The position numbers were made by a program, and so were the translations under genes. Positions 1,999 to 16,240 of a stretch of 30,375 nucleotides of DNA are shown piece after piece. Source of the DNA: a virus. Taxonomy: Duplodnaviria; Heunggongvirae; Uroviricota; Caudoviricetes. A model generated the notes under the pieces. It searched no databases, was not told the origin of the DNA, and was given only the letters and a program-made list of their open reading frames with translations. Within the stretch, counting starts at the first letter, position 1. Each line of letters begins with the position of its first letter. The stretch is from IMG/VR virus record IMGVR_UViG_3300044613_002694, positions 1 to 30,375 of that record; one strand, given 5' to 3'.

Positions 1999-2002
1999 AG
2001 TT

Positions 2003-2031: not shown

Positions 2032-2058
2032 GACTGTGATAGTGAGATGTGGTAGTAT
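2030..2058 (+). promoter_or_regulatory. Array promoter TTGACT-N17-TAGTAT with TG extension
   Basis: TTGACT 2030-2035, TAGTAT 2053-2058, 25 nt before the first array ATG. Confidence 0.7.
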
Positions 2059-2069
2059 TGTGTTTTGGT

Positions 2070-2087
2070 ATATTGAGGTGATCATGA
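2070..2087 (+). promoter_or_regulatory. Non-coding leader copy of the array junction motif, serving as SD of unit 1
   Basis: ATATTGAGGTGATCATGA, 17/18 identical to junction ATATTGAGGTGGTCATGA; GAGGTGATC complements the 16S rRNA 3' end. Confidence 0.85.
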
Positions 2088-2266
2088 AGCGAGTAAAATT
2101 TAGTGCATCTACCTTCCGTAAATTCATGAATGAGACACAGGAGTTGAATTGGGTTGAGTCGTTTGAGTTACATGGGTTTAAGACGTATCGGTATGATTGT
2201 ACTAGTTATCCCAGGCATAGTTTGAGTGAAGAAGAGTATACCTGGTTTATATTGAGGTGGTCATGA
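2084..2266 (+). CDS. Array unit 1, class A
   Basis: Start after leader SD; ends WFILRWS. Confidence 0.85.
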   Translation: MKRVKFSASTFRKFMNETQELNWVESFELHGFKTYRYDCTSYPRHSLSEEEYTWFILRWS

Positions 2267-2487
2267 CATTTTGTATATTGTATGATGATTTACCTACATC
2301 AATAAAAAGCAATCTTGAGGAGCATTGTGGTTGGACTGCTGGTATTGATCCATCGATAGGTGACTTGTTATGTCAGCAAGTTGAGCGTAATGAGTTATTA
2401 AAATTTCATGCGACTATTTCTAACCATGATGTTATCGAATTTGAAAATGAAGCGTATTATACGTTATTTGTATTGAGGTGGTCATGA
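2263..2487 (+). CDS. Array unit 2, class D
   Basis: ATGA overlap; ends LFVLRWS. Confidence 0.85.
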   Translation: MTFCILYDDLPTSIKSNLEEHCGWTAGIDPSIGDLLCQQVERNELLKFHATISNHDVIEFENEAYYTLFVLRWS

Positions 2488-2672
2488 AGTATTTTAATTT
2501 ACTGGAGTTTCCGAAGTTTCTTGAAGAATATGAAAGTGACAGTGGTACTTGGTATGATAGTTTAAAAAGGGCTGGATATAGTTCAGTTGATCAGCATGGG
2601 CCGTTTGGACGTGAAAATTCGTATTCTATGAGTGATGAGCATTGGACTTGGTTTATATTGAGGTTTTTATGA
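2484..2672 (+). CDS. Array unit 3, class A
   Basis: ATGA overlap; ends WFILRFL. Confidence 0.85.
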   Translation: MKYFNLLEFPKFLEEYESDSGTWYDSLKRAGYSSVDQHGPFGRENSYSMSDEHWTWFILRFL

Positions 2673-2851
2673 TTTTTAATTTAATGGGGTTTCCGAAATT
2701 TCGTAGGTTTGCTGCTGGTGATGGGTATGATACATGGGAAGCTAGTTTACGTAATAATGGATTTCCATCTGCCAGGGTGCATGATTATAATGATTTAATA
2801 TATGAGATGGATGATATTGAGTATACTTGGTTTGTATTGAGGTGGTCATGA
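2669..2851 (+). CDS. Array unit 4, class A
   Basis: ATGA overlap; ends WFVLRWS. Confidence 0.85.
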   Translation: MIFNLMGFPKFRRFAAGDGYDTWEASLRNNGFPSARVHDYNDLIYEMDDIEYTWFVLRWS

Positions 2852-3036
2852 ATAGGGTATATTTTAATATTAAAGATTTTCCCAATTTTAGAAAAGAAGC
2901 ACTAAACTATTCAGGTACGCTCGATGATACGATGAGAAGAATGGGGTTTAAATCTGCAAAATTCAGACTTCAAGGTCCTAATGCATGGGGTTTAAGTGAA
3001 GAAGAATATACCTGGTTTGTGTTGAGGTTTTCATGA
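2848..3036 (+). CDS. Array unit 5, class A (5' half identical to unit 18)
   Basis: ATGA overlap; ends WFVLRFS. Confidence 0.85.
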   Translation: MNRVYFNIKDFPNFRKEALNYSGTLDDTMRRMGFKSAKFRLQGPNAWGLSEEEYTWFVLRFS

Positions 3037-3242
3037 AGCAGTTTCATATATCTGACTACCCAAATTTTTACTATTATGCAAAACGTATTGCTAAAGATGA
3101 ACTGGAGAGAACCGGTAAAAGACCCTTATATAGTGAGATAATGATACGTGAAGGATATAGATCTGCGATTATGGCTGAACCTGGGCAAGGTTGGTGTATG
3201 GATGATGTGGATTTTACTTGGTTTATATTGAGGTGGTCATGA
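3033..3242 (+). CDS. Array unit 6, class A
   Basis: ATGA overlap; ends WFILRWS. Confidence 0.85.
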   Translation: MKQFHISDYPNFYYYAKRIAKDELERTGKRPLYSEIMIREGYRSAIMAEPGQGWCMDDVDFTWFILRWS

Positions 3243-3448
3243 ATGTACTTACACTTACGTTATATAGGGAATCACGAGTGGGTCTTAACATTGTTAAGTT
3301 ATATATGGCATCTAGTTATTATAATTGGCCTGAGTTTATTAAAACACTTGATGATAATATAGTTGATGTTTTTGTTGCTCCCTTTTACACTGATATTACA
3401 TTTGAGAGTGAAGCACATAAGACTTGGTTCTTAATGAGGTATGCATGA
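3239..3448 (+). CDS. Array unit 7, class B
   Basis: ATGA overlap; ends WFLMRYA. Confidence 0.85.
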   Translation: MNVLTLTLYRESRVGLNIVKLYMASSYYNWPEFIKTLDDNIVDVFVAPFYTDITFESEAHKTWFLMRYA

Positions 3449-3693
3449 GTCAAAAATTAGGATGGAAAAAGAAATACCCGTTTAAAGCTACTATAAAAAG
3501 TGATAGTGTAGAAGCGTCAGCATGGTTAAGATCACAGTTTGGGCATGATTATTTAACACTATCGTCCGGTAGAAGGCTAGTACTCAATAGAAAAGACCGG
3601 GTATGGGCGTTTGAGAAATGGGAGTATACTGGTTCTACCTATGGATTTGGTAATGAAGAACATAAGACTTGGTTTTTATTGAGGTGGTCATGA
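3445..3693 (+). CDS. Array unit 8, class C-like
   Basis: ATGA overlap; ends WFLLRWS. Confidence 0.85.
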   Translation: MSQKLGWKKKYPFKATIKSDSVEASAWLRSQFGHDYLTLSSGRRLVLNRKDRVWAFEKWEYTGSTYGFGNEEHKTWFLLRWS

Positions 3694-3917
3694 GTCAATT
3701 AAAGGTAGTCACTTTCTCATCTATGGATCGTAATATCTATGCGGAATGGGAGTTATCAGAGAAATTTTATGGGTACGACATTTCTTGGACTGGGTATATA
3801 GAATCATTACCGCATGTTAAAGATGCAAAGTTTGTTTATGGGGATGGTGATTCATATACCTTGATCACATTTGATAGTGAAGAACATAAGACTTGGTTTA
3901 TATTGAGGTATTCATGA
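3690..3917 (+). CDS. Array unit 9, class B
   Basis: ATGA overlap; ends WFILRYS. Confidence 0.85.
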   Translation: MSQLKVVTFSSMDRNIYAEWELSEKFYGYDISWTGYIESLPHVKDAKFVYGDGDSYTLITFDSEEHKTWFILRYS

Positions 3918-4183
3918 AGAATATATTTACAGGCAATTGGCCTATTACATCAGATGGTTATTACATGGATCTTCCAGAAGGATGGGCTGGGGTATATACG
4001 GTTAAACAACTCAACTTACTTGGATTTGTTGCAGATTTGGAAGGTTATGCCGAGGTAGTAGACTGGATTCATAAAAACATCAAAAATGTTGATCGTAATG
4101 TATGGAGTAAGGGTTTTGGCAGTGCTCAATTTGCATTTAGAAAGAAATCGGATTATACTTGGTTTATATTGAGGTATTCATGA
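3914..4183 (+). CDS. Array unit 10, class C-like
   Basis: ATGA overlap; ends WFILRYS. Confidence 0.85.
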   Translation: MKNIFTGNWPITSDGYYMDLPEGWAGVYTVKQLNLLGFVADLEGYAEVVDWIHKNIKNVDRNVWSKGFGSAQFAFRKKSDYTWFILRYS

Positions 4184-4386
4184 TACAACTAAAAGTAAAA
4201 ATAAATTCAAGCATGGATCATAAATTACGTGAAGAATTCAACAACGTAGTTTGGGAAGACCTTATTATTGGGTATTATGGAATTATTGATGCCGAATATA
4301 TTCAATCAGGTAGTGAAACCGGTTGTACTACTATTGTATTTAAATCAGACGAATCTAAAACTTTTTTCTTAATAAAATACTCATGA
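4180..4386 (+). CDS. Array unit 11, class B
   Basis: ATGA overlap; ends FFLIKYS. Confidence 0.85.
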   Translation: MIQLKVKINSSMDHKLREEFNNVVWEDLIIGYYGIIDAEYIQSGSETGCTTIVFKSDESKTFFLIKYS

Positions 4387-4586
4387 TATATTATGTAGAT
4401 ATATTGCATACAACCACTTGGACAATTCAAGCGAGTGGTAGAGTTATGTTAACCTATGAAACTTCTGAATGGTTGAAAAAGAATTGTAAGGGTAGTTTCA
4501 TGTTAACCTGGGAAAACTGGCCATTTTATCGATTGGCGTTTAGTAATGAAGAAGATCGTAATTGGTTTGTATTGAGGTGGTCATGA
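4383..4586 (+). CDS. Array unit 12, class C
   Basis: ATGA overlap; ends WFVLRWS. Confidence 0.85.
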   Translation: MIYYVDILHTTTWTIQASGRVMLTYETSEWLKKNCKGSFMLTWENWPFYRLAFSNEEDRNWFVLRWS

Positions 4587-4777
4587 AAACAATTAAGATA
4601 AATGATTTTCCAAAATACACAACCGAGTTTCACAATGATGGATACGATACATGGGAAGATAGTATTAGGGCTAATGGATATAAAAGTGTAAAAGTTAATG
4701 CTGTCCATCCTTTTTTTGGCACGGTGTTAGATTTATCAGATGAAGATTATACTTGGTTCTTATTGAGGTGGTCATGA
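4583..4777 (+). CDS. Array unit 13, class A
   Basis: ATGA overlap; ends WFLLRWS. Confidence 0.85.
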   Translation: MKTIKINDFPKYTTEFHNDGYDTWEDSIRANGYKSVKVNAVHPFFGTVLDLSDEDYTWFLLRWS

Positions 4778-4989
4778 TAACCATCAAACCTTCACTGATG
4801 GATGAATGGTGGGTTAATTTTACCATGTCGTTATACGAGCAGGGATGGCTTGGAATGAGCTTTGAAAAACAATTGGTGGTACGCGAATCAGAATTAAATC
4901 GATACCATGTCACGTATGATATACATCAATATACCTTGACATTTGAGTCAGAAGCCTATTATAATTGGTTTATTTTGAGGTGGTCATGA
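4774..4989 (+). CDS. Array unit 14, class E body with D-type tail
   Basis: ATGA overlap; WWVNF motif; ends WFILRWS. Confidence 0.85.
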   Translation: MITIKPSLMDEWWVNFTMSLYEQGWLGMSFEKQLVVRESELNRYHVTYDIHQYTLTFESEAYYNWFILRWS

Positions 4990-5213
4990 GTTGTATGTTA
5001 CATATACCCTATGGTTCTGTTATGGACTATAAGTTAGAAGAGCAATGGTATATACCTGATTGTGCTGATGATATTCAATGGTCTAATTATTTATTATCGA
5101 TTAGTAAGGGTATAATTGATGTTCGTGCTGCAACAGTTAATGGGGTCAATGGTACTATAGTTAAATTCAACACAGAAGAACATAAGACTTGGTTTGTATT
5201 GAGGTGGTCATGA
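4986..5213 (+). CDS. Array unit 15, class B
   Basis: ATGA overlap; ends WFVLRWS. Confidence 0.85.
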   Translation: MSCMLHIPYGSVMDYKLEEQWYIPDCADDIQWSNYLLSISKGIIDVRAATVNGVNGTIVKFNTEEHKTWFVLRWS

Positions 5214-5404
5214 GTTGTATATTGGAGATACCAGTGATATCAACTTTAGAAGACAATATAGCCAAATATTATGGTACAATAGAGTGGCTGGATATAGCAA
5301 GGCATGAAGTTGGGATATCCAGTGTTTCATATAACAGATTTATTACCTACGTTGAGTTTGCAACTGAAGCACATAAGACTTGGTTTTTATTGAGGTGGTC
5401 ATGA
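5210..5404 (+). CDS. Array unit 16, class B
   Basis: ATGA overlap; ends WFLLRWS. Confidence 0.85.
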   Translation: MSCILEIPVISTLEDNIAKYYGTIEWLDIARHEVGISSVSYNRFITYVEFATEAHKTWFLLRWS

Positions 5405-5604
5405 GTCAATTAACGATAAAGAATAAATCTGCTTTGGAGAGAAAGTTATATGATGAATGGCGGAATAGTCCAGCTATAACATGGGTAGCCTTTATTAAGT
5501 CACTTGACAAGAATATTATTAGTGTTCGGTATGCTAATCCATACACTGATATTTGGTTTGATGATGATGCACGTAAGAATTGGTTTATATTGAGGTGGTC
5601 ATGA
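5401..5604 (+). CDS. Array unit 17, class B (close paralog of unit 24)
   Basis: ATGA overlap; ends WFILRWS. Confidence 0.85.
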   Translation: MSQLTIKNKSALERKLYDEWRNSPAITWVAFIKSLDKNIISVRYANPYTDIWFDDDARKNWFILRWS

Positions 5605-5792
5605 ATAGGGTATATTTTAATATTAAAGATTTTCCCAATTTTAGAAAAGAAGCACTAAACTATTCAGGTACGCTCGATGATACGATGAGAAGAATGGGTT
5701 ATAAAACTGCAACATTCAAAGCCAATGGTACTGTGAATGCATGGGGGTTGAGCGAAGAAGAATATACTTGGTTTGTATTGAGGTGGTCATGA
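5601..5792 (+). CDS. Array unit 18, class A
   Basis: ATGA overlap; ends WFVLRWS. Confidence 0.85.
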   Translation: MNRVYFNIKDFPNFRKEALNYSGTLDDTMRRMGYKTATFKANGTVNAWGLSEEEYTWFVLRWS

Positions 5793-6046
5793 TTAGATTA
5801 AGCATTTATAAACCAAGCATTATTGGTGCAACTGCTTGGGACAGTTGTACGAATGAATGGAAGACCATGGTGAGAGAACTGATGTCCAGGTATTCAGATT
5901 GGCCAGATCGTGATGATACCTGGTATCTAATTAATCAGGAATTACAGAAATATCATGGGAGTTTAGATAGGCTTGATAATGAGGTCAAAGAAATTATATT
6001 TGATAGTGCTGAAGGTAAGACTTGGTTTTTATTGAGGTATTCATGA
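5789..6046 (+). CDS. Array unit 19, class E-like
   Basis: ATGA overlap; ends WFLLRYS. Confidence 0.85.
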   Translation: MIRLSIYKPSIIGATAWDSCTNEWKTMVRELMSRYSDWPDRDDTWYLINQELQKYHGSLDRLDNEVKEIIFDSAEGKTWFLLRYS

Positions 6047-6249
6047 GTGAGTTATATTTAAAAGAGGGTACTGCGTTAGATCATAAACTGACTCGGCTAT
6101 TTTTTAGTAGTCAAACACGTGCTTGGTATAAGTTTGTTAAATCGCTTGATGAGAACATTATTGATGTCAGTGGTTTAACGGGTAGTATTACAAGAATCAC
6201 ATTTAACAGTGAAGCACATAAGACTTGGTTTATATTGAGGTATTCATGA
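6043..6249 (+). CDS. Array unit 20, class B
   Basis: ATGA overlap; ends WFILRYS. Confidence 0.85.
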   Translation: MSELYLKEGTALDHKLTRLFFSSQTRAWYKFVKSLDENIIDVSGLTGSITRITFNSEAHKTWFILRYS

Positions 6250-6461
6250 GTGTATTGTATATGGGTAATAATTTACCATTATATAAGAAACTGTCTGATT
6301 TATATTTGGCATCTAGTATTGTTGGGTGGTATAGTTTTATCAAATCGCTTGATGACAATATAGTTAGTGTTGACCGTGTTAAATTGGGTGGTGTTGAAGT
6401 TATGCAGATTGAATTTGATAATGAAGCACATAAGACTTGGTTTTTATTAAAATATTCATGA
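6246..6461 (+). CDS. Array unit 21, class B
   Basis: ATGA overlap; ends WFLLKYS. Confidence 0.85.
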   Translation: MSVLYMGNNLPLYKKLSDLYLASSIVGWYSFIKSLDDNIVSVDRVKLGGVEVMQIEFDNEAHKTWFLLKYS

Positions 6462-6691
6462 GTGAGTTAATTATAATGTCTAGTTCAACGATAGATGTTA
6501 ATCTTGAATCTGGGTGGGCTAGTGAATTTTATCAGATTGATGATTGGTTGGATTATTTGAAATCATTACCCACGGTCATTGATGCAACCTGGCATGAGCG
6601 TGAATGGAATGGTGGTGATAATCCATCATATACTTTGATCACATTTGAAAGTGAAGCACATAAGAATTGGTTTGTATTGAGGTGGTCATGA
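6458..6691 (+). CDS. Array unit 22, class B
   Basis: ATGA overlap; ends WFVLRWS. Confidence 0.85.
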   Translation: MSELIIMSSSTIDVNLESGWASEFYQIDDWLDYLKSLPTVIDATWHEREWNGGDNPSYTLITFESEAHKNWFVLRWS

Positions 6692-6909
6692 GTCAAGTAA
6701 AAGTACTTTTTAACTCAGCAATGGATTAAAATCTTGAAGAGTATGTACGTAGTGGCGTGAATAATGATTGGGAAGAAGTTATAAAATCATTACCCTATGT
6801 TAAAGATGCGAAATGGATTACTATTGGTTCGTCGATAGGTGGGTCCTATACTTTAATTACATTTGAAAATGAAGCACATAAGAATTGGTTTATAATGAGG
6901 TGGTCATGA
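6688..6909 (+). pseudogene. Array unit 23, class B, in-frame TAA at 6727-6729
   Basis: MSQVKVLFNSAMD*NLEEY...ITFENEAHKNWFIMRWS in one frame; could be an assembly error. Confidence 0.85.
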
Positions 6910-7109
6910 GTCAATTAACGATAAAGAATAATTCTACAATAGAGTGGAAGTTATACGATGCATGGAGAAATGCTGGAGTTTCATCATGGGAAATATTTAT
7001 TAAGTCACTTGACAAGAATATTATCAGGGTTCGTTACGATACCCCATATACAAATGTTTGGTTCAAGGATGACGCACACACAACTTGGTTTATTTTGAGG
7101 TGGTCATGA
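6906..7109 (+). CDS. Array unit 24, class B
   Basis: ATGA overlap; ends WFILRWS. Confidence 0.85.
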   Translation: MSQLTIKNNSTIEWKLYDAWRNAGVSSWEIFIKSLDKNIIRVRYDTPYTNVWFKDDAHTTWFILRWS

Positions 7110-7327
7110 GTGAATTAAAAGTACCCTCACCATCTACTATGGATAGTAATATCGAAGCGGAATGGGAATCATCAGAATCATATGGGTTCGATACTTGGAC
7201 AAGGTATATAGAATCATTACCTCACGTTAAATCAGCAAGGCTTGTTTTTAGAGCTGGTGATAATCATACCTTGATCACATTTGAAAATGAAGCGCATAAG
7301 AATTGGTTTATATTGAGGTATTCATGA
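7106..7327 (+). CDS. Array unit 25, class B
   Basis: ATGA overlap; ends WFILRYS. Confidence 0.85.
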   Translation: MSELKVPSPSTMDSNIEAEWESSESYGFDTWTRYIESLPHVKSARLVFRAGDNHTLITFENEAHKNWFILRYS

Positions 7328-7551
7328 TTTTTGATCCCCATACTATTAAGCTGACTGGTACTTTATATGATAATTGCATCTATGAAAATAGATTGTCAGA
7401 TGAAGTATGGGAGTGGTTATTTGACCATTGTAGTGGCCCTAATACTGATCGTTTTTATTATTATACTGGATACACGCCTGGAAGGGATACCCATTATATT
7501 CGGTTTGATTATAGGGAACATAGTAATTGGTTCTTATTGAGATGGAGTTAA
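7324..7551 (+). CDS. Array unit 26, class C
   Basis: ATGA overlap; ends WFLLRWS. Confidence 0.85.
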   Translation: MIFDPHTIKLTGTLYDNCIYENRLSDEVWEWLFDHCSGPNTDRFYYYTGYTPGRDTHYIRFDYREHSNWFLLRWS

Positions 7552-7552
7552 G

Positions 7553-7633
7553 ATGTCAATAAAAATTAATGAGTGTTCTATTGAATTCGACAATGAATCC
7601 TGTTATAATTGGGTTTTAGTGAGGTGGTCTTGA
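7553..7633 (+). CDS. Array unit 27, 26-aa mini-unit MSIKINECSIEFDNESCYNWVLVRWS
   Basis: Hand translation; N-terminus joined directly to the tail motif. Confidence 0.7.
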   Translation: MSIKINECSIEFDNESCYNWVLVRWS

Positions 7634-7848
7634 TTGATTTTATTTTATATGATGGTAGCCCACTTGATGTAAAATTAATGGCTATGTGGGAGGATGACCA
7701 CTACTCTGACCGGCTAAATTATGAAATTTTTGTTGGCTCATTAGATCCGCACATTGTCAATGCAAAAGCAGATGAAAATTATGCGTCAATTACCCTAACA
7801 TTTGAAAACGAAAAATATTTAACCTGGTTTATATTAAAATGGTCATAG
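7630..7848 (+). CDS. Array unit 28, class B-like, TTG start
   Basis: TTGA overlap after GAGG; ends WFILKWS. Confidence 0.8.
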   Translation: MIDFILYDGSPLDVKLMAMWEDDHYSDRLNYEIFVGSLDPHIVNAKADENYASITLTFENEKYLTWFILKWS

Positions 7849-8051
7849 AAAAAGAACAGTATCCGTATTCGATTAATACTTCCTGTATTAGACGTGCATT
7901 TAGGCAAGACATATGGGAGTGGTGCAATCATGTGTTCGGCCCTTATCAAGGTAATGATAAATGGTCATGGGGTGATGATATAGTTAAGTTTAGCACAATC
8001 CATTGTGCCGAGTTTTTTGCATGGAGGTGGTATGGATACGACGTGGACTGA
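7839..8051 (+). CDS. Array unit 29, class C, degenerate tail
   Basis: ATG from AAA-TGG of unit 28; ends FFAWRWYGYDVD. Confidence 0.75.
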   Translation: MVIEKEQYPYSINTSCIRRAFRQDIWEWCNHVFGPYQGNDKWSWGDDIVKFSTIHCAEFFAWRWYGYDVD

Positions 8052-8238
8052 GTTAACACGCACGATGTATCGGGAAATGGCACGTGACGCTCGTAGACAA
8101 GGTTACATTTTCAATAGTGATTTCATCCGCGCAGAAAATATTGGGGATTATTATCCACGAATTCGGAATTACGAATTTGGTGCGATTAAATTTAGAACCC
8201 CAGAATTAAAAACGTTTTATTTATTGAGGTGGTCATGA
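8032..8238 (+). CDS. Array unit 30, unclassified
   Basis: GGAGGTGG SD; ends FYLLRWS. Confidence 0.8.
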   Translation: MDTTWTELTRTMYREMARDARRQGYIFNSDFIRAENIGDYYPRIRNYEFGAIKFRTPELKTFYLLRWS

Positions 8239-8447
8239 AACAGGTTAAGATAGGGTTTGAGAATTTTTATTTAGAGGGTTTACTATTTAAACTTACCCCA
8301 GCAGTTACGAATTGGCTTATTGCACATAAAGTGGAAGATTACCGGGTAAGACATGAACATTTATATGATAGACCTGCTCTGGAAATAGAGTTCGGCGATA
8401 ATGTACCAGATGAAATAATCAATTGGTTTATTTTGAGATGGTTATGA
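8235..8447 (+). CDS. Array unit 31, class C-like
   Basis: ATGA overlap; ends WFILRWL. Confidence 0.85.
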   Translation: MKQVKIGFENFYLEGLLFKLTPAVTNWLIAHKVEDYRVRHEHLYDRPALEIEFGDNVPDEIINWFILRWL

Positions 8448-8644
8448 AAACATTTAATATTAGCGATTTTCCTCGATTTTTAGATGAGTGGATTTTATAC
8501 CCAGATTTTTCTAGTTATCACCACGCTGCTGCTGATTATTATATGAGACAGGTTGGATTCAAATCAGCAAGGTTTGTTAATATTGAGGTTGGTTGGGGCT
8601 TGAGTGATGAAGAATATACATGGTTTTTAATAAGGTATTCATGA
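8444..8644 (+). CDS. Array unit 32, class A
   Basis: ATGA overlap; ends WFLIRYS. Confidence 0.85.
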   Translation: MKTFNISDFPRFLDEWILYPDFSSYHHAAADYYMRQVGFKSARFVNIEVGWGLSDEEYTWFLIRYS

Positions 8645-8838
8645 AAAACATTGACATCTATAAATTTAAAAAATTCATTGCTGCATGGCAATCTGAGCCT
8701 TATTCTCGGTTAAAGGGTGATGAATGTATGCGACGAATGGGTTTTAAATCGGCAATGTATGTAATTTTTTCAAAAGATAATAAATCATGGCAATTAAGTG
8801 AAGAAGAATATACTTGGTTTGTCTTGAGGTGGTCATGA
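8641..8838 (+). CDS. Array unit 33, class A
   Basis: ATGA overlap; ends WFVLRWS. Confidence 0.85.
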   Translation: MKNIDIYKFKKFIAAWQSEPYSRLKGDECMRRMGFKSAMYVIFSKDNKSWQLSEEEYTWFVLRWS

Positions 8839-9035
8839 AGTCGATCTCATTAGAGTCAGCACCGTGTTTAGCCATGCGTGAATATTACTCGTTGAATGTA
8901 TGGGAGCCTGGGTGTACTATAATTTATTTAGATTGGGTGTTTAATGAATATCGTGCAACATTTGATAAAGAAAATTGGACATATGTATTTGAACATGATG
9001 AAGAATATACTTGGTTTTTATTGAGGTGGTCATGA
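8835..9035 (+). CDS. Array unit 34, unclassified
   Basis: ATGA overlap; ends WFLLRWS. Confidence 0.85.
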   Translation: MKSISLESAPCLAMREYYSLNVWEPGCTIIYLDWVFNEYRATFDKENWTYVFEHDEEYTWFLLRWS

Positions 9036-9295
9036 GTGAGTTATATTTAAAAGAGGGTACTGCGTTATATCATAAACTGACTCGGCTATTTTTTAGTAGT
9101 CAAACTTATACCTGGTATAAGGATGAATGGGAATTATCAGAATTTTATGAATTCAGTCATTGGACAAGGTATATAGAATCATTACCTCACGTTAAATCTG
9201 CACAGTTTGTTGCTAGTAAACCTGGTAAAGAATATACCTTGATCACATTTGATAGTGAAGAACATAAGACTTGGTTTATATTGAGGTATTCATGA
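9032..9295 (+). CDS. Array unit 35, class B chimera of unit 20-, 25- and 9-like segments
   Basis: ATGA overlap; ends WFILRYS. Confidence 0.85.
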   Translation: MSELYLKEGTALYHKLTRLFFSSQTYTWYKDEWELSEFYEFSHWTRYIESLPHVKSAQFVASKPGKEYTLITFDSEEHKTWFILRYS

Positions 9296-9477
9296 AAATA
9301 CTCGATTTATATTATTTTCCAAAATACAAAACAGAATTTATAAACGATGGATACAGTACATGGGAAGCTAGTGTTAGGGCTAATGGATTTAAAAGTGCAG
9401 TTACTTGTTCAGCGTTTGGTGAAAGATTATGGATATCAGATGAAGAGTATACTTGGTTCTTATTGAGGTGGTCATGA
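9292..9477 (+). CDS. Array unit 36, class A
   Basis: ATGA overlap; ends WFLLRWS. Confidence 0.85.
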   Translation: MKILDLYYFPKYKTEFINDGYSTWEASVRANGFKSAVTCSAFGERLWISDEEYTWFLLRWS

Positions 9478-9683
9478 CTATAAAAATTGATTCGAAGATA
9501 GTCCCAAAGGTTGTTTTAAAAAATTTACACGATCAATGTAGCCATATGGTTGGCACAGGCAAATATTGGGCAACGATAAATGATGAGTTGAATAAATTTG
9601 GTGCGAAATATGATCATTCTAAATCATGTTTTCATTTTAACGATGAAGCTATGTATCATTGGTTCTTATTGAGGTGGTCATAA
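9474..9683 (+). CDS. Array unit 37, class D
   Basis: ATGA overlap; ends WFLLRWS. Confidence 0.85.
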   Translation: MTIKIDSKIVPKVVLKNLHDQCSHMVGTGKYWATINDELNKFGAKYDHSKSCFHFNDEAMYHWFLLRWS

Positions 9684-9928
9684 TGCATCGATTAGAAATA
9701 CCAGGATGTATCTTCGAATCTACCCCAATCTGGTGGCAAAACTTTATCCATGATTGCCGATTAAAATACCCAAATGATTTTGGAAGTGATTTTCGGCGGG
9801 TAACTACTAAAATTCTTAAAGAAGAGTATCATGCATCAAAGATTTATGATAGACGTATTAATGATATAGAAGCCTTGGCATTTGACAAAGAAGAATATAA
9901 GACTTGGTTTGTATTGAGGTGGTCATGA
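9683..9928 (+). CDS. Array unit 38, class E
   Basis: TAATG overlap; PIWWQNF; ends WFVLRWS. Confidence 0.85.
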   Translation: MHRLEIPGCIFESTPIWWQNFIHDCRLKYPNDFGSDFRRVTTKILKEEYHASKIYDRRINDIEALAFDKEEYKTWFVLRWS

Positions 9929-10146
9929 GTTTTACAATTAATTATAAGATGTTACCTAAAAATGTAAAAAAAAATTTTGAAGATTTTTGCTTGTGGGAAC
10001 ATAAACAACTCGATTATGAGATGTGTATACGAAACGAAGCAGTTGAACTTGCCAAATTTAATGCAATACACGATAAATCTAACAATGATTTGTTTGTTTT
10101 TGAAAACGAAGCCTGTTATAATTGGTTTGTATTGAGGTGGTCATGA
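9925..10146 (+). CDS. Array unit 39, class D
   Basis: ATGA overlap; ends WFVLRWS. Confidence 0.85.
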   Translation: MSFTINYKMLPKNVKKNFEDFCLWEHKQLDYEMCIRNEAVELAKFNAIHDKSNNDLFVFENEACYNWFVLRWS

Positions 10147-10337
10147 GTTTTACTATTGAATGGCCATCTATACCATACGATGTTCGACGGAAATTTTGTG
10201 CTGCATATCCTGTTCCTATTAATATGAATATTTTTAAAGCAGAATTAGCAAAGTTTCATTGTGAGTATACCAGTGATAATCTAGCCATTTTTGAAAGCGA
10301 AGCACATTATAATTGGTTTTTGTTGAGATGGAGTTAG
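10143..10337 (+). CDS. Array unit 40, class D
   Basis: ATGA overlap; ends WFLLRWS. Confidence 0.85.
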   Translation: MSFTIEWPSIPYDVRRKFCAAYPVPINMNIFKAELAKFHCEYTSDNLAIFESEAHYNWFLLRWS

Positions 10338-10338
10338 T

Positions 10339-10521
10339 ATGATATTTGATGTGACAGATTTTCCTAAATTTGTGAGTTATGCTGGAGGAAACTTTCCCAA
10401 TTCGGTGCTAATGTCTGATAGTCTAATAGCTGCCGGGTATAAATCAACCAAGTTTAGATCTTATGGTTCTTGGTATATGGATGATGAAGAATACACTTGG
10501 TTTGTATTGAGGTGGTCATGA
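10339..10521 (+). CDS. Array unit 41, class A
   Basis: 1-nt gap; ends WFVLRWS. Confidence 0.85.
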   Translation: MIFDVTDFPKFVSYAGGNFPNSVLMSDSLIAAGYKSTKFRSYGSWYMDDEEYTWFVLRWS

Positions 10522-10715
10522 GTTTTACTATCGATTGGATAGAAATACCGTTCAACCCTCGAAAAAACTTTTGTGACAAATATGTTCATCCCTATGACGA
10601 TCTCAGTGTTTTTAGAGCAGAATTGGCAAAGTTTCATTGTGAGTATACCAGTGATAATCTAGCCATTTTTGAAAGCGAAGCACATTACACTTGGTTTGTA
10701 TTGAGGTGGTCATGA
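10518..10715 (+). CDS. Array unit 42, class D (62 nt identical to unit 40)
   Basis: ATGA overlap; ends WFVLRWS. Confidence 0.85.
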   Translation: MSFTIDWIEIPFNPRKNFCDKYVHPYDDLSVFRAELAKFHCEYTSDNLAIFESEAHYTWFVLRWS

Positions 10716-10930
10716 TACAATTAAGAATACCTTCACCATCTAATATAGATGAAAATCTTGAAGCAGAATGGGAAGCAGAAGATATTAATATAGATGAATG
10801 GTTACGTTATTTGAAATCATTAACTTATGTTAAGGATGCAGAATGGATTGATAGGTTGCTGAATCCCTATACACTTATTACATTTGAAAGTGAAGCACAT
10901 AAGAACTGGTTTATTTTGAGGTGGTCATGA
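10712..10930 (+). CDS. Array unit 43, class B
   Basis: ATGA overlap; ends WFILRWS. Confidence 0.85.
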   Translation: MIQLRIPSPSNIDENLEAEWEAEDINIDEWLRYLKSLTYVKDAEWIDRLLNPYTLITFESEAHKNWFILRWS

Positions 10931-11367
10931 ACCGGAGTTTACGTATTATTAATAAAGGATTTAAAGCAGAAATCACAAACCGGGATAACGAATATAAGTT
11001 TATGGATCAGGTTAGGTGGTGCTACGAACATAAAAGTAAGATAAGGTTCTTATGGTTTTTTGAACGTGATGCTAAATTTGAATGTATGAGTTTAGTTAAT
11101 ACCAATACGTTTTATTTTGAAAAAGAATCAGATCGTAATTGGTTTCTAATTAGGTGGTCATGCATGATACATTTAAAAGTATTCACTTTCTCAGCCATGG
11201 ATGATAATCTCTCCAAGGAATGGGATCGTTTAGATTCGTGGATACCGTGGATACAATATATAAAATCATTACCACATGTTATAGAGGCGGAATGGAACAC
11301 TACCTATACACGTATTACATTTAAAAATGAAGCACATAAGAATTGGTTTGTATTGAGGTGGTCATGA
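10927..11367 (+). CDS. Array unit 44, in-frame fusion of a class C and a class B unit
   Basis: Internal WFLIRWS-C-MIHL; CATGCATG at 11159-11166; ends WFVLRWS. Confidence 0.85.
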   Translation: MNRSLRIINKGFKAEITNRDNEYKFMDQVRWCYEHKSKIRFLWFFERDAKFECMSLVNTNTFYFEKESDRNWFLIRWSCMIHLKVFTFSAMDDNLSKEWDRLDSWIPWIQYIKSLPHVIEAEWNTTYTRITFKNEAHKNWFVLRWS

Positions 11368-11558
11368 AAACGATTAAGATAACTAATTTCCCAAAATATA
11401 AAAAAGAGTGTCAAAATGATGAATATGATACCTGGGAAGAAAGTGTTAGAGCTAATGGATATAAAAGTGCAATTGCTGATCCTAACGATAATTATTTTGG
11501 TACTTATATACGTATGTCGGATGAAGATTACACGTGGTTCGTTTTAAAATGGTCATGA
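11364..11558 (+). CDS. Array unit 45, class A
   Basis: ATGA overlap; ends WFVLKWS. Confidence 0.85.
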   Translation: MKTIKITNFPKYKKECQNDEYDTWEESVRANGYKSAIADPNDNYFGTYIRMSDEDYTWFVLKWS

Positions 11559-11758
11559 CGTATTCAGTAAGATTCTTTGACATACCATATCGTGTCAGGT
11601 ATAATTACATCAAAGAATACAAACTTGTTGAGACAGTCGAGGGTTATGAAGAATTGATGAGCAAGTATCGATTTAAAAGAGTTATGCGTGATCACCTGTT
11701 GTATTACGAGTTTGAATCCGAAAAATATTACACTTGGTTTTTATTAAGATTTTCATGA
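11555..11758 (+). CDS. Array unit 46, class D-like
   Basis: ATGA overlap; ends WFLLRFS. Confidence 0.85.
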   Translation: MTYSVRFFDIPYRVRYNYIKEYKLVETVEGYEELMSKYRFKRVMRDHLLYYEFESEKYYTWFLLRFS

Positions 11759-12012
11759 ATACAGAAATAGAATTAACATCTTTTTTAGAAGATTGTCCAG
11801 CAGTTTGGCGTAAATTCAGTCAGATTGAAATAGAGTCTACCGATATTTACGAATTACCAGTAGCTGATGCAATAACCAGATTAAATGAGTTATTAAAAAA
11901 ATATCATGCTGAATATACCCATGCATACAGTGTAAATGGAAATGTTTGTCGTCGATATTTAAAATTCGAAAGTGAAGCGCATAAGAATTGGTTTATTATC
12001 AAATGGTCATAA
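11755..12012 (+). CDS. Array unit 47, class E-like
   Basis: ATGA overlap; ends WFIIKWS. Confidence 0.85.
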   Translation: MNTEIELTSFLEDCPAVWRKFSQIEIESTDIYELPVADAITRLNELLKKYHAEYTHAYSVNGNVCRRYLKFESEAHKNWFIIKWS

Positions 12013-12230
12013 TTCATTTCAGTAAAAAAAATTATAATCAGCTAAATGCATGTGAACCATGGTGGTTTAATTTTGTTGATTATTACTCAGATATAATAGA
12101 ACCATGGTATGGCTTTGATTCAATCAATCAGATATTGAAAGAATATGATGCGGTGGTTAATCCCTCCAACAACACTGTTATTTTTAATGATGATGCAAAA
12201 GCTACTTGGTTTCTATTAAAATGGGCTTAA
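12003..12230 (+). CDS. Array unit 48, class E
   Basis: ATG from AAA-TGG; PWWFNF; ends WFLLKWA. Confidence 0.8.
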   Translation: MVIIHFSKKNYNQLNACEPWWFNFVDYYSDIIEPWYGFDSINQILKEYDAVVNPSNNTVIFNDDAKATWFLLKWA

Positions 12231-12448
12231 TCAATCATATTACTCAAACTAGATTTGAAGCAAACGGCGAGGTATTCTATTACCATGTCGTTCATATTTC
12301 TAGTATCATGAATGCCGAAATTTGTGAATGGTGTTTGTCAAACTTTGATCGTAGTAATGATCTTGATAGATGGTTTACCGATCATTGGGGTAAGTATTTT
12401 TTTAGACATGAAGATGATAAGAATTGGTTTGTATTGAGGTGGTCATGA
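12221..12448 (+). CDS. Array unit 49, class C
   Basis: ATG from AAA-TGG; ends WFVLRWS. Confidence 0.8.
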   Translation: MGLINHITQTRFEANGEVFYYHVVHISSIMNAEICEWCLSNFDRSNDLDRWFTDHWGKYFFRHEDDKNWFVLRWS

Positions 12449-12702
12449 AAATACTACATTTAAGAGTTGGTTCTATAGCAGATCAAGCTGGTTGGTGGGT
12501 TAATTTCATAAAGGATTGTGATGAACGAGGTGGTTGGGATACGTATTCCCGAGATTCCGAACGGGTTGATTTCATCATAAATGAAGTCCGCAAGGCAGGT
12601 GCTGAACCAATTTTAAGAAGCTCGAACGTTCCAGGATCAATCATTGGTATGACTTTCGAAAATGAAGCTAAAGCCAATTGGTTCTTATTGAGGTGGTCAT
12701 GA
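12445..12702 (+). CDS. Array unit 50, class E
   Basis: ATGA overlap; WWVNF; ends WFLLRWS. Confidence 0.85.
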   Translation: MKILHLRVGSIADQAGWWVNFIKDCDERGGWDTYSRDSERVDFIINEVRKAGAEPILRSSNVPGSIIGMTFENEAKANWFLLRWS

Positions 12703-12884
12703 GAATAATCAACATATTAGATTTTGAAAAGTTCACCGATTATTATTCGGAGAAATGGCAATTTAATACCTGGGATGAATGTTTACGAGATACCGGTATT
12801 AAACAAATTGCTTGGATTGATGATACCTTTCAGATAGAGATCACTGATGCAGAATACACCTGGTTTGTGTTGAGGTGGGCATAA
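12699..12884 (+). CDS. Array unit 51, class A
   Basis: ATGA overlap; ends WFVLRWA. Confidence 0.85.
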   Translation: MRIINILDFEKFTDYYSEKWQFNTWDECLRDTGIKQIAWIDDTFQIEITDAEYTWFVLRWA

Positions 12885-13090
12885 TGAAATCATACACTGA
12901 TACCGACATTTATGTTGTAGAAATAGAGGAAAATGATGAGCAGTATATAGAGGACTACCTTGATTGGTGTGAAGAGACATTTGAAGAAGATAAATGGATT
13001 ATTGCTGCTAGTGAATTGTTGTTCGAAAATACTAGGATTCTGTTTATGACAGAACAAGATCGTAATTGGTTTATGATGAGGTGGGGATGA
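12884..13090 (+). CDS. Array unit 52, class C
   Basis: TAATG overlap; ends WFMMRWG. Confidence 0.85.
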   Translation: MKSYTDTDIYVVEIEENDEQYIEDYLDWCEETFEEDKWIIAASELLFENTRILFMTEQDRNWFMMRWG

Positions 13091-13329
13091 AAAAAGTATT
13101 TTTCACGACTGAGGTTGCATTAAAGTTTTACACCGTACAAATCAAAGAAGATATTGGCTGGAATTCATTTATTGATGCCAAAGAGGAATGGTGCGATAAT
13201 CATAAAAGTAAGGTCAAATTCTTTTGGTTTTTTGAACGTGATGCACGATATGTTTACAGTTATTATTATTCAACCTGGTATTTTGAAAAAGAAGTTGACC
13301 GTAATTGGTTTATGATGAGGTGGGGATGA
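13087..13329 (+). CDS. Array unit 53, class C
   Basis: ATGA overlap; ends WFMMRWG. Confidence 0.85.
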   Translation: MKKVFFTTEVALKFYTVQIKEDIGWNSFIDAKEEWCDNHKSKVKFFWFFERDARYVYSYYYSTWYFEKEVDRNWFMMRWG

Positions 13330-13571
13330 TCGTTTGTGATGTAACTCTTAAAAACAATAGCCCATTCGATATTAGTGCATGGTGTGGAAAACAATTTGGT
13401 CCAGGTGGATACTCGTACACCCCATCAGACAACTATCGATGGACTATGTACATTTATACCGGTAGTGGTATCAAAAGACACCCAGCCCGAATTAGATTAT
13501 CATTTTTAAATGATCAAGATTATAACTGGTTTTGCTTGAGGTTCGAATGTCAAACAACGAAGATAAGTTAA
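13326..13571 (+). CDS. Array unit 54, class C, extended tail
   Basis: ATGA overlap; ends WFCLRFECQTTKIS. Confidence 0.85.
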   Translation: MIVCDVTLKNNSPFDISAWCGKQFGPGGYSYTPSDNYRWTMYIYTGSGIKRHPARIRLSFLNDQDYNWFCLRFECQTTKIS

Positions 13572-13762
13572 TACTTAAACCCTATCGTATCACTGCGTCT
13601 AATGTACCAAACTCAATAAGAAACAAATTAGGGTATGATACGGCAAGTTGGCGAGATGTAATTGAAGAATGCCATGGTATTATATACAGGACTACGTTTG
13701 ATTATGTTCTTGAATTTGAAAGTCTTGCCCAGTATAATTGGTTCTTAATAAGGTATAGTTAA
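13547..13762 (+). CDS. Array unit 55, class D-like
   Basis: GAGG SD in unit 54 tail; ends WFLIRYS. Confidence 0.8.
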   Translation: MSNNEDKLILKPYRITASNVPNSIRNKLGYDTASWRDVIEECHGIIYRTTFDYVLEFESLAQYNWFLIRYS

Positions 13763-14013
13763 TGATCTCTGCGGAAGGTAGATTAGAGGGTCTTAAAGCA
13801 CGTTATTATATTGCATCCCTACCCATGTCTAATGACTTGTTAGAACAATACAATTGGTGTGTTGGCCATAATAGTTGCGTTAAGTCATGGTGGTTTTTTA
13901 CAAGGCCAGCTCGATTTTTCTGGGACCCTACTAGATTTAATAATACGTTTTATTTTGAAAAAGAATCAGATCGCAATTGGTTTATAATGAGGTGGGGCTA
14001 TGACAGAAACTGA
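13762..14013 (+). CDS. Array unit 56, class C
   Basis: TAATG overlap; ends WFIMRWGYDRN. Confidence 0.85.
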   Translation: MISAEGRLEGLKARYYIASLPMSNDLLEQYNWCVGHNSCVKSWWFFTRPARFFWDPTRFNNTFYFEKESDRNWFIMRWGYDRN

Positions 14014-14257
14014 TGGGTTGTTTTATTACGCACCCTATAATCCATTTGGGGTACCCTACAAAACCACCAGAAAGCTTACCGACGTAGATGGTATATGGTA
14101 TACTGTAATTACTATGAAACATGAAGTGGACGATTGGATAGTTGAACTACCTATGGGTAGTTGGCGTTACTCTGCCAATAGAAGAATGGTAGACCTGTTC
14201 AGTGGGTTCGATTTACGTGAAGATGTCTACCAGTGGTTTTTATTGAGGTGGTCATGA
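14000..14257 (+). CDS. Array unit 57, related to unit 67
   Basis: GAGG SD in unit 56 tail; ends WFLLRWS. Confidence 0.85.
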   Translation: MTETDGLFYYAPYNPFGVPYKTTRKLTDVDGIWYTVITMKHEVDDWIVELPMGSWRYSANRRMVDLFSGFDLREDVYQWFLLRWS

Positions 14258-14460
14258 CGTTTGTAATAAGTGAGCACAATTTACCCATTAACTATAGACG
14301 GTTTAACGACCATTGTAACAAGAATGAAAACGGTACAAGATATTGGGTTAACGTTCGTCAAGAACTAGAAAAATTCAAAGCAACCTATAATAACATAACA
14401 AATCAACTTGTGTTTGAATCAGAAGCCCATTATAATTGGTTTGTATTGAGGTGGTCATGA
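14254..14460 (+). CDS. Array unit 58, class D
   Basis: ATGA overlap; ends WFVLRWS. Confidence 0.85.
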   Translation: MTFVISEHNLPINYRRFNDHCNKNENGTRYWVNVRQELEKFKATYNNITNQLVFESEAHYNWFVLRWS

Positions 14461-14684
14461 CATTTGAAGTTAAGTTTAAAAACATACCAGACATAACTAG
14501 AGAGAATTTTCTAACAGCATGTGGTAAATATGATGATTTTGTATCCAAGTATGATTTCGACACAAGACGAAATCATGAATTAGCGAAGTGTAAAGGTAAC
14601 CGGGTTAGTAATGGTCTAGGTGAACTGGTATACGAATTTGAAAGTGAAGCCCATTATAATTGGTTTGTAGTGAGGTGGTCATGA
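14457..14684 (+). CDS. Array unit 59, class D
   Basis: ATGA overlap; ends WFVVRWS. Confidence 0.85.
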   Translation: MTFEVKFKNIPDITRENFLTACGKYDDFVSKYDFDTRRNHELAKCKGNRVSNGLGELVYEFESEAHYNWFVVRWS

Positions 14685-14905
14685 CTTTTGAAATTTATTT
14701 TGAAAACATACCACAAATTGTTAAAACGAATTTCCTTATAGATTGTGATAATTATCACCAGAGTGGTGTAAATCACATTAACGAAACAATTAATAAAGAA
14801 TTAGCGAAGTTCAAGGGTAAACGGTTTAAGAATTGCCATGACAAGCTGGTATACGAATTTGAAAGTGAAGCCCATTATAATTGGTTTGTATTGAGGTATT
14901 CGTAA
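14681..14905 (+). CDS. Array unit 60, class D
   Basis: ATGA overlap; ends WFVLRYS. Confidence 0.85.
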   Translation: MTFEIYFENIPQIVKTNFLIDCDNYHQSGVNHINETINKELAKFKGKRFKNCHDKLVYEFESEAHYNWFVLRYS

Positions 14906-15129
14906 TGTATAAAGTAACCATCCCATTTGATCCAGAATGGCCTGATGAAAACTGTAAGGTACTATTGGCAAAAGAATGGTGTCACCAAACGTTTGGTAGC
15001 CGTCGATGCCCAATTACGTTAAAGTATCGTTGGATGACTAGATATACGTGGACCGGTAATAGATATATAATATATTTCTTTTTTGAAAAAGAAGAACATG
15101 CAACGTAGTTCAAATTACAATGGGCATGA
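14905..15129 (+). pseudogene. Array unit 61, class C, motif Trp codon replaced by TAG at 15106-15108
   Basis: ...EKEEHAT*FKLQWA* in frame; only the tail motif is lost. Confidence 0.75.
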
Positions 15130-15368
15130 AATTTAAGACATTTGATAGTAGGGCTGATCTCGATCACCCATATGGTGTATGTTTAGAAGTGTTTGGCGAT
15201 ACTTATGAGATAACCTTTACCAAAATAGAAATTGATAATTGGTGCCTAGAACAGTTTGGTCCCGATGGGGATAAATGGGCAGGGGTAATGTATGTTGGTG
15301 AAAACTACATAAGGGTATATTTCAAATCTATTGATGATCGTAATTGGTTTTTATTGAGATGGACATGA
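15126..15368 (+). CDS. Array unit 62, class C
   Basis: ATGA overlap with the relic stop of unit 61; ends WFLLRWT. Confidence 0.85.
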   Translation: MKFKTFDSRADLDHPYGVCLEVFGDTYEITFTKIEIDNWCLEQFGPDGDKWAGVMYVGENYIRVYFKSIDDRNWFLLRWT

Positions 15369-15577
15369 TATCAATTAATATAACACATAAACAATGGAAC
15401 AAATTAGCATTCTATCGTGATGAGTCCGATTCTAGTATTGTGAATATGCGTTCATCACGAGAAATGAAACAATATATCAAAGATACCTATCATGGAAATT
15501 ATGATCAACTAAAAGGTTTTGGAACCATCACATTTGAACATGAACATCTTCTAACTTGGTTTTTATTAAATGTATGA
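15365..15577 (+). CDS. Array unit 63, unclassified
   Basis: ATGA overlap; ends WFLLNV. Confidence 0.85.
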   Translation: MISINITHKQWNKLAFYRDESDSSIVNMRSSREMKQYIKDTYHGNYDQLKGFGTITFEHEHLLTWFLLNV

Positions 15578-15794
15578 AATACAAATTAACACACGATAAT
15601 TGGAAAGATCTTGATAGCAAGTTTGACGCAAAAGCTGGCAGGTCGCTCGTTAGAAGTGATCGGATATGTTATGGAAGGAATCGATTATGCAGGAGTATAA
15701 ATTAGATTATGAAGAAGATTACACGAATAGTCGAGACCATGGCACTGTTTCCGGTGAAGCACATCGTATAACTTGGTTTCTATTAAACATATGA
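15574..15794 (+). pseudogene. Array unit 64, frameshifted relative of unit 63
   Basis: MKYKLTHDNWKDL... in one frame and DMLWKES...GEAHRITWFLLNI in another; the shift lies after ~15657. Confidence 0.75.
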
Positions 15795-16039
15795 TATTAC
15801 ATTTGGTAGACGGCGGGTTTTTAACACAACCCTCATGGTGGCAGAATTTCATAAACGATATCGATGATAGATTTCCAGATGCATTTCACTACTACGAAGA
15901 TGAAGAACGTGAACAGTTAATTAAAGTTGAATTTGCAAAGGTTGGTGCTATTCTTATAGATGATGAGTATGACGGTATACTGGGAGTTGAATTCCATGAT
16001 GATGCAAAAGCTACTTGGTTTATAATGAGGTGGTCATAA
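15791..16039 (+). CDS. Array unit 65, class E
   Basis: ATGA overlap; PSWWQNF; ends WFIMRWS. Confidence 0.85.
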   Translation: MILHLVDGGFLTQPSWWQNFINDIDDRFPDAFHYYEDEEREQLIKVEFAKVGAILIDDEYDGILGVEFHDDAKATWFIMRWS

Positions 16040-16240
16040 TTGAATAATATATTAAAAATACCATTGTTTTCAAAAATGGAAGATAATATATCAGCATTTT
16101 ATGGGACCAATCGCTGGATGAGTTCTGCATTGCTGGAAACTGGGATAGTCTCATGTCGGTTTACATCTGAGTCGTGTGAAACCATAATTACATTTGAAAC
16201 CGACGCTCATAAGAATTGGTTTATAATAAGGTGGTCATGA
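16040..16240 (+). CDS. Array unit 66, class B, TTG start
   Basis: Abuts previous TAA; ends WFIIRWS. Confidence 0.8.
   Translation: MNNILKIPLFSKMEDNISAFYGTNRWMSSALLETGIVSCRFTSESCETIITFETDAHKNWFIIRWS

Follow-up and report, generated by a model that had tools for sequence, protein, structure and literature searches.

An intact mosaic gene in a translationally coupled array of phage paralogues, probably built by several non-reciprocal recombination events

RESULTS

In an array of translationally coupled paralogues in a virus genome, we found one gene (9032-9295; plus strand, 264 nt, 87 aa) that is probably a genuine, intact mosaic built, as proposed below, by several non-reciprocal recombination events. 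A sequence-only reading of the same DNA had taken this gene for a three-way chimera of distant array members. The three matching tracts that it named are present, but three donors do not serve as a whole account, since ~27% of the gene has no donor in the window (the 30,375-nt stretch of DNA analyzed here, at its full length). A better description is a resident unit that has kept two private segments, received a 5' graft, and shares two conversion tracts.

The array and its genomic context

The window comprises bases 1 to 30,375 of an IMG/VR virus record of 94,375 bases, which is estimated to be ~40% complete. An unbroken plus-strand array of roughly 80 to 86 small genes, of 50 to 95 codons each, takes up ~19 kb of it (~2,084-20,962). 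Nearly every array gene has a WFxLRWS-type motif at its end, and the last codons also contain a ribosome-binding site of the GAGG type and overlap the next gene through TCATGA, which combines stop and start. In the mosaic gene, the C-terminal motif of this WFxLRWS small-protein family lies at 9271-9295, where it overlaps the ribosome-binding site and start of the following gene. An intact frame, an ATG, and an upstream GAGG-type motif were found in all three units with which the mosaic gene shares sequence (its partners) and in nearly all array units. Searches of Pfam and PHROG assigned no family to the mosaic unit (9032-9295) or to any of the three partners. Since its frame, start codon, and coupling motif are intact, the mosaic gene is, judging from its sequence, probably functional.

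Some individual units are described here in their own right. In the unit at 10927-11367, the junction at 11157-11166 reads TCATGCATGA in place of TCATGA; a 4-nt CATG duplication at this site abolishes the stop codon, and the two units are thereby read in frame as one 146-aa protein with two domains. The unit at 6688-6909 has an in-frame TAA at codon 14; either it is a pseudogene, or translation restarts at GTG 6757 and gives a product that lacks the original N terminus. At 111 nt, the array's longest exact repeat (2835-2945 = 5588-5698) spans a junction and the 5' half of two units, the 3' parts of which then diverge. A 62-nt exact interior repeat (10248-10309 = 10626-10687) is found in two units that have one unit between them; these two have common 3' halves and differing 5' halves, and the repeat is a candidate conversion tract. 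A subset of array units ends in R-Y-S (GAGGTAT) rather than R-W-S (GAGGTGG), and the mosaic gene (9280-9295) and all three partners (3902-3917, 6234-6249, and 7312-7327) are of that type; the GAGGTAT ending weakens the ribosome-binding match for the next gene.

Downstream of the array are genes for ART-PolyVal domain proteins and for a 1007-aa protein whose distant matches come from phages of 250 to 640 kb; they point to an uncultured jumbo phage as the source of this DNA. Of the three genes that immediately follow the array (21543-23715), the first encodes an ART-PolyVal ADP-ribosyltransferase domain (E 6e-23), which the third matches weakly. The array is immediately preceded by an HNH/endonuclease VII-like gene (1354-1998; PHROG 1035, E 4e-25) that carries internal 72/117-nt tandem repeats. 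That this nuclease gene, adjoining a recombining array, might be a source of breaks is pure speculation. A RecA-family search of the 94-kb contig found no recombinase, a negative result that is uninformative because the contig holds only ~40% of the genome.

Composition of the mosaic gene

The mosaic gene could be divided into five segments, three of which have a partner tract elsewhere in the array (Table 1). A match to unit 20 over the first ~74 nt with one mismatch, identity of a middle tract to unit 25, and identity of the last 65 nt to the end of unit 9 had been claimed earlier, and an exact-match search of the window bore out all three. At the 5' end, 9030-9067 is identical to 6041-6078 and 9069-9105 to 6080-6116; the sole mismatch to unit 6043 in the first 74 nt from the ATG at 9032 (76 nt if counted from 9030) is at 9068, where T replaces G and codon 13 specifies Tyr instead of Asp. 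The middle tract was exact over 39 nt (the earlier count was 38), and the last tract was exact over its full 65 nt. The longest exact repeats of at least 20 nt in 2000-21000 measure 111, 65, 62, 45, 43, 40, 39, 38, and 37 nt, and the mosaic unit is involved in four of these nine. When the conserved junctions were masked, just 10 interior exact repeats of at least 20 nt were left in the 19 kb, and among all array units only the mosaic unit had three different interior-repeat partners.

Table 1. Positions in the window of the parts of the mosaic gene, its upstream junction, and its partner tracts
Feature	Positions	Strand	Description
Upstream junction	9011-9031	+	3' end of the preceding unit (8835-9035); Shine-Dalgarno-like GAGGTGG and TCATGA overlap
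Segment A	9032-9121	+	30 codons of the unit-20 lineage (6043-6132); strand 1, helix 1, and start of unit 20's helix 2
Segment B	9122-9159	+	Private, with no match of at least 12 nt in the window; a version of the segment already supplied by the end of A
Segment C	9160-9198	+	39 nt identical to 7195-7233; encodes the conserved Trp, helix 2, and start of strand 2
Segment D	9199-9231	+	Private (no match of 12 nt or more in the window); hairpin of strands 2 and 3, with its loop
Segment E	9232-9296	+	65 nt identical to 3854-3918; strand 3, C-terminal helix, stop, and start of the next gene
Partner 1	6043-6132	+	5' 30 codons of unit 6043-6249 (unit 20 of the sequence-only reading); donor lineage of segment A
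Partner 2	7195-7233	+	Tract in unit 7106-7327 (unit 25 of that reading), identical to segment C
Partner 3	3854-3918	+	3' end of unit 3690-3917 (unit 9 of that reading), identical to segment E

The 5' graft and the out-of-register join

Homology to unit 6043 extends beyond the near-identical 74 nt: 84 of 90 positions are identical between 9032-9121 and 6043-6132 (93% by BLAST), and five clustered mismatches to the window's unit 20 fall at 9106-9112. On a relative of 367,267 nt, the unit-20 allele (P0030) has the same residues as the mosaic protein across this stretch. P0030 agrees in all of its first 30 aa with P0001, a form of the mosaic protein on an ENA contig that still has Asp13, and with the window's mosaic protein at 29 of these 30 positions. 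Because P0030 matches P0001 perfectly, the five mismatches are allelic and the graft comprises 30 codons (90 nt); the match of ~74 nt noted earlier thus stands, with its extent refined. Because P0001 keeps Asp13, the change from Asp13 to Tyr is a later one that marks the window allele. At 6115-6123, the window's own unit 20 departs from both the mosaic gene and P0030 by five changes within eight bases, affecting two adjacent residues. This clustered patch looks like a putative micro-conversion; no donor for it was found in the window.

In an alignment of 31 proteins, the mosaic protein has a 13-residue insert relative to all 30 relatives. The piece derived from unit 20 extends through its conserved Trp (W28-Y-K, 9113-9121). 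After 9121 comes the other subfamily's version of the homologous segment, up to its own conserved Trp (W44-T-R, 9161-9169). The insert, together with the two versions of the conserved Trp segment, shows that the out-of-register join is real, and the earlier explanation of the gene's extra length as a 5' piece joined out of register therefore holds. The alignment also shows that the N terminus encoded by segment A is native to the subfamily of unit 20, so that the transfer ran from unit 20 to the mosaic unit.

The two edges of the graft differ in kind. The left edge of identity (9030) lies inside the junction repeat, whereas the right edge (9121/9122) has no visible homology. Within the upstream junction, 9011-9027 is identical to 6022-6038 and to many further junctions, and 9028-9029 is unlike the junction upstream of 6043 (GG versus AT). 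The junction at 9011-9031 is the probable homologous left anchor of the graft. The unit preceding the mosaic gene is the 8835 unit, not the unit found upstream of 6043.

Private segments and a probable parent allele

Segments B and D together account for 71 of the 264 nt (~27%), and nothing else in the window matches either of them over 12 nt or more, which leaves part of the unit unexplained by the three donors. A search of 5.8 billion protein clusters yielded only 13 relatives. Among those clusters, the protein encoded by segment B was found as residues 18 to 30 of P0002 and in no other cluster, and segment D was found in no protein outside the mosaic protein's own 90% cluster. P0002 is a normal-length protein of 73 aa encoded on the 367-kb relative; the mosaic gene is 42 nt longer and, in the window, ends 1,968 nt beyond the end of the 7106 unit. 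Its best matches on the window's contig are the 7106 unit (81%) and the mosaic protein (72%). The relative carries no member of the mosaic protein's 90% cluster; it carries P0002 and its own allele of the 7106 unit, P0024, and these two proteins have exactly their last 33 residues in common. Both neighbors of the mosaic gene (units 8835 and 9292) have exact copies on this relative and were found on 26 and 21 contigs, respectively. The simplest reading of this protein-cluster bookkeeping is that P0002 and the mosaic protein would be alleles of one locus, with P0002 probably the unrearranged one.

Megablast against GenBank phages gave no match to the window. Scans of IMG/VR and JGI metagenome contigs with exact junction patterns and with protein guidance found nothing near, just two distant arrays (L009 and L010); near relatives apparently lie outside these collections.

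Tests for mosaic structure

From 9121 onward, the mosaic gene was aligned with units 3690 and 7106, to each of which it is ~82% identical, as they are to each other. Identity was far from even along this alignment (Table 2): the near-identical tracts (39/39 and 65/65) are bordered by far more diverged sequence (27-28/39 and ~20/30). The 74-nt near-identity at the 5' end is to a unit of another subfamily.

Table 2. Identical positions in pairwise comparisons of the mosaic gene with units 7106 and 3690
Positions	Mosaic/7106	Mosaic/3690	3690/7106
9121-9159	27/39	28/39	32/39
9160-9198	39/39	33/39	33/39
9199-9231	20/30	19/30	21/30
9232-9296	57/65	65/65	57/65

Recombination detection, which had been named earlier as a check across the array, came out in favor of exchange for the three units and their subfamily, both by site clustering and by tract permutation. 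The 26 sites at which the mosaic gene agrees with only one of the two partners (A or B) fall in the order B AAA BBBBBBB AAA BBBB AAAAAAAA, which makes six runs; so few were obtained in 0.11% of 100,000 shuffles (p = 0.0011). A GENECONV-style permutation used 70 polymorphic sites in six subfamily members and gave P values for each of 15 pairs. The longest agreeing run was 20 sites for the mosaic gene and 7106 (p = 0.002, uncorrected) and 19 sites for the mosaic gene and 3690 (p = 0.02, uncorrected, which fails correction for 15 pairs). For 3690 and 7106 it was six sites (p = 0.94), so that long tracts occurred only in pairs with the mosaic gene. The tract P values are modest.

The character of the shared sites adds to these results. 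Synonymous positions are identical within the tracts, and segment C has three synonymous states in common with 7106 that are absent from 3690. In both 3' tracts the shared states, synonymous positions included, are derived relative to four other subfamily members, which makes the mosaic unit the common party to two separate exchanges. Segment E starts 2 nt upstream of a 19-nt block that is identical in the mosaic, 3690, and 7106 units (9234-9252 = 7266-7284). Several units conserve the last ~34 nt of segment E for reasons of coupling, which leaves only ~30 nt of it informative.

Segment combinations in other strains

The exact mosaic protein was present on 23 contigs from NCBI, JGI/IMG, ENA, and MetaClust, a number that may include the same assemblies deposited in more than one archive; the one-residue variant P0001 (Asp13) was on a separate ENA contig. 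For comparison, the neighbors were counted on 21 to 26 contigs and P0002 on 2. Even allowing for duplicate deposits, the mosaic form is the common (majority) allele among the sampled contigs.

Related proteins carried other combinations of the same parts. P0003 and P0006 are of the 7106 type in their 5' half and of the 3690 type in their 3' half. P0017 and P0018 belong to the 3690 type apart from a patch of two residues, which is of the 7106 type, and P0008 combines further variants. Within the mosaic gene, segment C matches the same-strain allele of the 7106 unit, whereas the two alleles of the relative (P0024 and P0002) differ from C and from each other. Segment E has the Tyr codon of the same-strain 3690 allele, whereas the relative's allele (P0017) has His. 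By sequence comparison, these same-strain matches of segments C and E bear the apparent signature of homogenization within a genome lineage. The earlier proposal of recent intragenic recombination or gene conversion from segments was upheld as regards segment-level exchange, on the evidence of site clustering, tracts, and strain combinations. "Recent" applies only in a relative sense, because the mosaic form is the majority allele among the sampled contigs.

Predicted structure of the mosaic protein

An AlphaFold2 model of P0002 made with the family alignment had a pLDDT of 93.3 and comprised a strand (residues 2 to 7), a helix (11 to 21), a short helix (24 to 28), a helix (31 to 37), two strands (41 to 47 and 54 to 59), and a helix (62 to 72). 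The predicted core of the family is strand-helix-helix-strand-strand-helix. The model of the mosaic protein (pLDDT 84.0) had the same core elements in the same order as P0002: a strand (2 to 7), two helices (11 to 23 and 37 to 50), two strands (54 to 61 and 67 to 73), and a helix (76 to 86). Confidence in this model fell over residues 21 to 40 (block means of 64 and 53), chiefly in a linker at residues 24 to 36. In the model, the 13 added residues thus appear as a low-confidence linker (24 to 36) in an otherwise intact predicted fold. In the predicted fold, one join follows helix 1, one precedes the conserved Trp, one falls where strand 2 begins (after helix 2), and one precedes strand 3. Foldseek searches of the PDB (best E, 0.25) and VIA-align against 48,161 chains (best Z, 5.2) returned only weak, generic alpha/beta-sandwich matches, which were ferredoxin-like or RRM-like.

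Alternative explanations and a proposed history

It is hardly credible that the gene is an assembly artifact produced by a short-read assembler that jumped between paralogues within shared repeats. The contig does come from a metagenome assembly, the region is repeat-rich, and the shared repeats of 37 to 65 nt equal or exceed small k-mer sizes. However, each join (9121/9122, 9159/9160, 9198/9199, and 9231/9232) lies next to sequence that occurs only once in the window, which means that there must be reads that contain it, and a jump within an exact repeat alters what comes after the repeat rather than the content of a unit. The recovery of an identical protein on 23 contigs from four sources, with a variant on a separate ENA contig, also contradicts chimeric assembly, which had been named earlier as the scenario that would overturn the claim. 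It is improbable, too, that the 3' two-thirds arose without recombination, as a third old paralogue of 3690 and 7106 whose patches of identity reflect uneven purifying selection. The overall identity of ~82% among all three units fits such an origin, as does the conservation, for protein and coupling reasons, of the C-terminal ~34 nt and of two 19-nt blocks. Yet selection at the protein level leaves the identity at synonymous sites unexplained, the sites favoring each partner are spatially separated (p = 0.001), long tracts occur only in pairs that include the mosaic gene, and other strains carry other segment combinations.

For the 5' end, a different route to the same sequence is conceivable but unlikely: a copy of unit 20 might have been inserted beside the resident unit (a cassette move), after which an in-frame deletion fused its 30 codons to codon ~18 of the resident. 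The final sequence is equally compatible with this route, and both whole-unit fusions (the CATG duplication at 11157-11166, with its 146-aa protein) and whole-unit duplicates (2835-2945 = 5588-5698) exist in the array. Against it, two events are needed, of which the deletion must happen to keep the frame; no intermediate, with a unit-20 copy beside a P0002-like unit, was seen among the protein clusters; and the left edge of identity coincides with the junction, as a homology-anchored patch predicts. Simple unequal crossover of the Lepore type was rejected. It needs a deletion or duplication between the parents; partner units 3690, 6043, and 7106 are intact, and the ~14 units between 6249 and 9032 are all present once. 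This arrangement indicates patches rather than a simple unequal crossover. A diversity-generating retroelement was likewise rejected: the differences between partners are block-wise rather than adenine-specific, and no template/variable repeat pair was found.

The gene is best read as a product of interlocus gene conversion or of ectopic repair between tandem paralogues. Such a process is already known, and its outcome is to be expected in tandem repeats. Under this reading, the locus would at first have held a normal-length unit of the 3690/7106 subfamily, of which 9122-9159 and 9199-9231 would be private remnants. In a first event, the first ~17 codons of this resident would have been replaced by the first 30 codons of unit 20, with a left end in the conserved junction repeat (homologous) and an out-of-register right end with little or no homology. 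Such an outcome could arise if a break invaded an ectopic junction, 90 nt were copied, and the end was then rejoined illegitimately; one structural segment would thereby come to be present in two versions and the protein would be ~13 residues longer. In a second event and later ones, short conversion tracts would have provided the 39 nt identical to 7106 and the last 65 nt identical to 3690, the latter beginning at the 19-nt block common to all three units and ending at the gene junction. The point change from Asp13 to Tyr in the window allele would have come later. We infer how the break was repaired, in what order the events came, and which way each 3' tract was copied, as we do the status of P0002 as the unrearranged allele.

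DISCUSSION

The mosaic gene indicates that diversification of the array is not confined to the gain, loss, and swapping of whole genes: pieces of 40 to 90 nt move between sister genes, and an out-of-register join can add a segment with the predicted fold not destroyed. The breakpoints map the interchangeable parts of an unannotated fold, which will help in the design of chimeras once a target or phenotype is known. Such mosaics also confound orthology calls and strain comparisons in metagenomic phage genomes and merit a check at the level of reads, although the one at 9032-9295 passes assembly scrutiny.

A bolder idea, which we hold tentatively and think doubtful, is that the array is a self-shuffling library in which the invariant gene junctions and two or three conserved blocks within each unit act as standard crossover points. 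If so, segments of about one secondary-structure element each would be continually recombined among ~86 expressed paralogues, and exchange would also take place between co-infecting strains. Even out-of-register joins would then give foldable, retained proteins, and the architecture would be one favored by selection in conflict with the host. The array would be a phage counterpart of the segmental conversion seen in antigenic variation, with every cassette expressed. The case would gain in wider import only if the array turns out to be under selection for segment shuffling.

In Neisseria pilE/pilS, Borrelia vlsE, and the mosaic VSGs of trypanosomes, variants are made from short segments of several paralogous donors, and conserved framework blocks guide the exchange. 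In these antigenic-variation systems a single site is expressed, the cassettes are silent, and initiation has its own dedicated mechanisms. The array differs from them in that every unit has its own start signal and an intact frame, and nothing indicates a programmed process. A programmed silent-cassette system was rejected on these grounds, since none of the partners, and hardly any unit, lacks an intact frame, an ATG, or a GAGG-type motif.

Tract lengths in interlocus gene conversion have been reviewed (PMC3924818). In the lpl cluster of Staphylococcus aureus, a conserved block in each open reading frame (ORF) shuffles two variable halves between strains (Tsuru and Kobayashi 2008, PMC2568036). 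As in that cluster, the genes studied here are tandem paralogues in which short conserved blocks inside the ORFs probably serve for crossover, the history of the 5' part of an ORF disagrees with that of its 3' part, the combinations of variable segments vary by strain, and conservation of a gene's end goes together with that of the following start (PMC2568036). Unlike the lpl cluster, this is a phage array of ~86 genes of ~70 codons, with TCATGA overlaps and no intergenic DNA, and here one out-of-register join lengthens the protein. In the gp38 adhesins of T2/T6-type phages, hypervariable segments alternate with glycine-rich motifs that are conserved (Trojet et al. 2011, PMC3157838). These adhesins resemble the present case in combining conserved structural blocks with interchangeable variable segments, which in gp38 are exchanged between alleles (PMC3157838). 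However, gp38 is a single-copy virion adhesin with a known receptor role, whereas the partners described here are paralogues within one array.

In T4-type phages, PeSL-mediated modular shuffling has been described for hyperplastic regions (Arbiol et al. 2010, PMC2839356; Comeau et al. 2014, PMC4122927). Both that system and the array have short repeated motifs at gene boundaries as recombination points, in the PeSL case in variable early-gene regions of large myoviruses (PMC2839356, PMC4122927). A PeSL, however, is an intergenic promoter plus stem-loop, and whole genes are moved. We rejected PeSL shuffling as the process at work here: the TCATGA overlaps leave no intergenic DNA, and four of the joins lie inside the ORF. 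Large tandem arrays have also been reported in jumbo phages G and 121Q (2017, PMC5646251), a similar case of a jumbo phage genome expanded by tandem duplication of one small gene; that paper describes arrays but neither mosaic members nor the sub-genic exchange seen here. Particular to the mosaic case are the scale and compactness of the array, the exchange of pieces smaller than a gene, and the presence of an out-of-register join as the majority allele.
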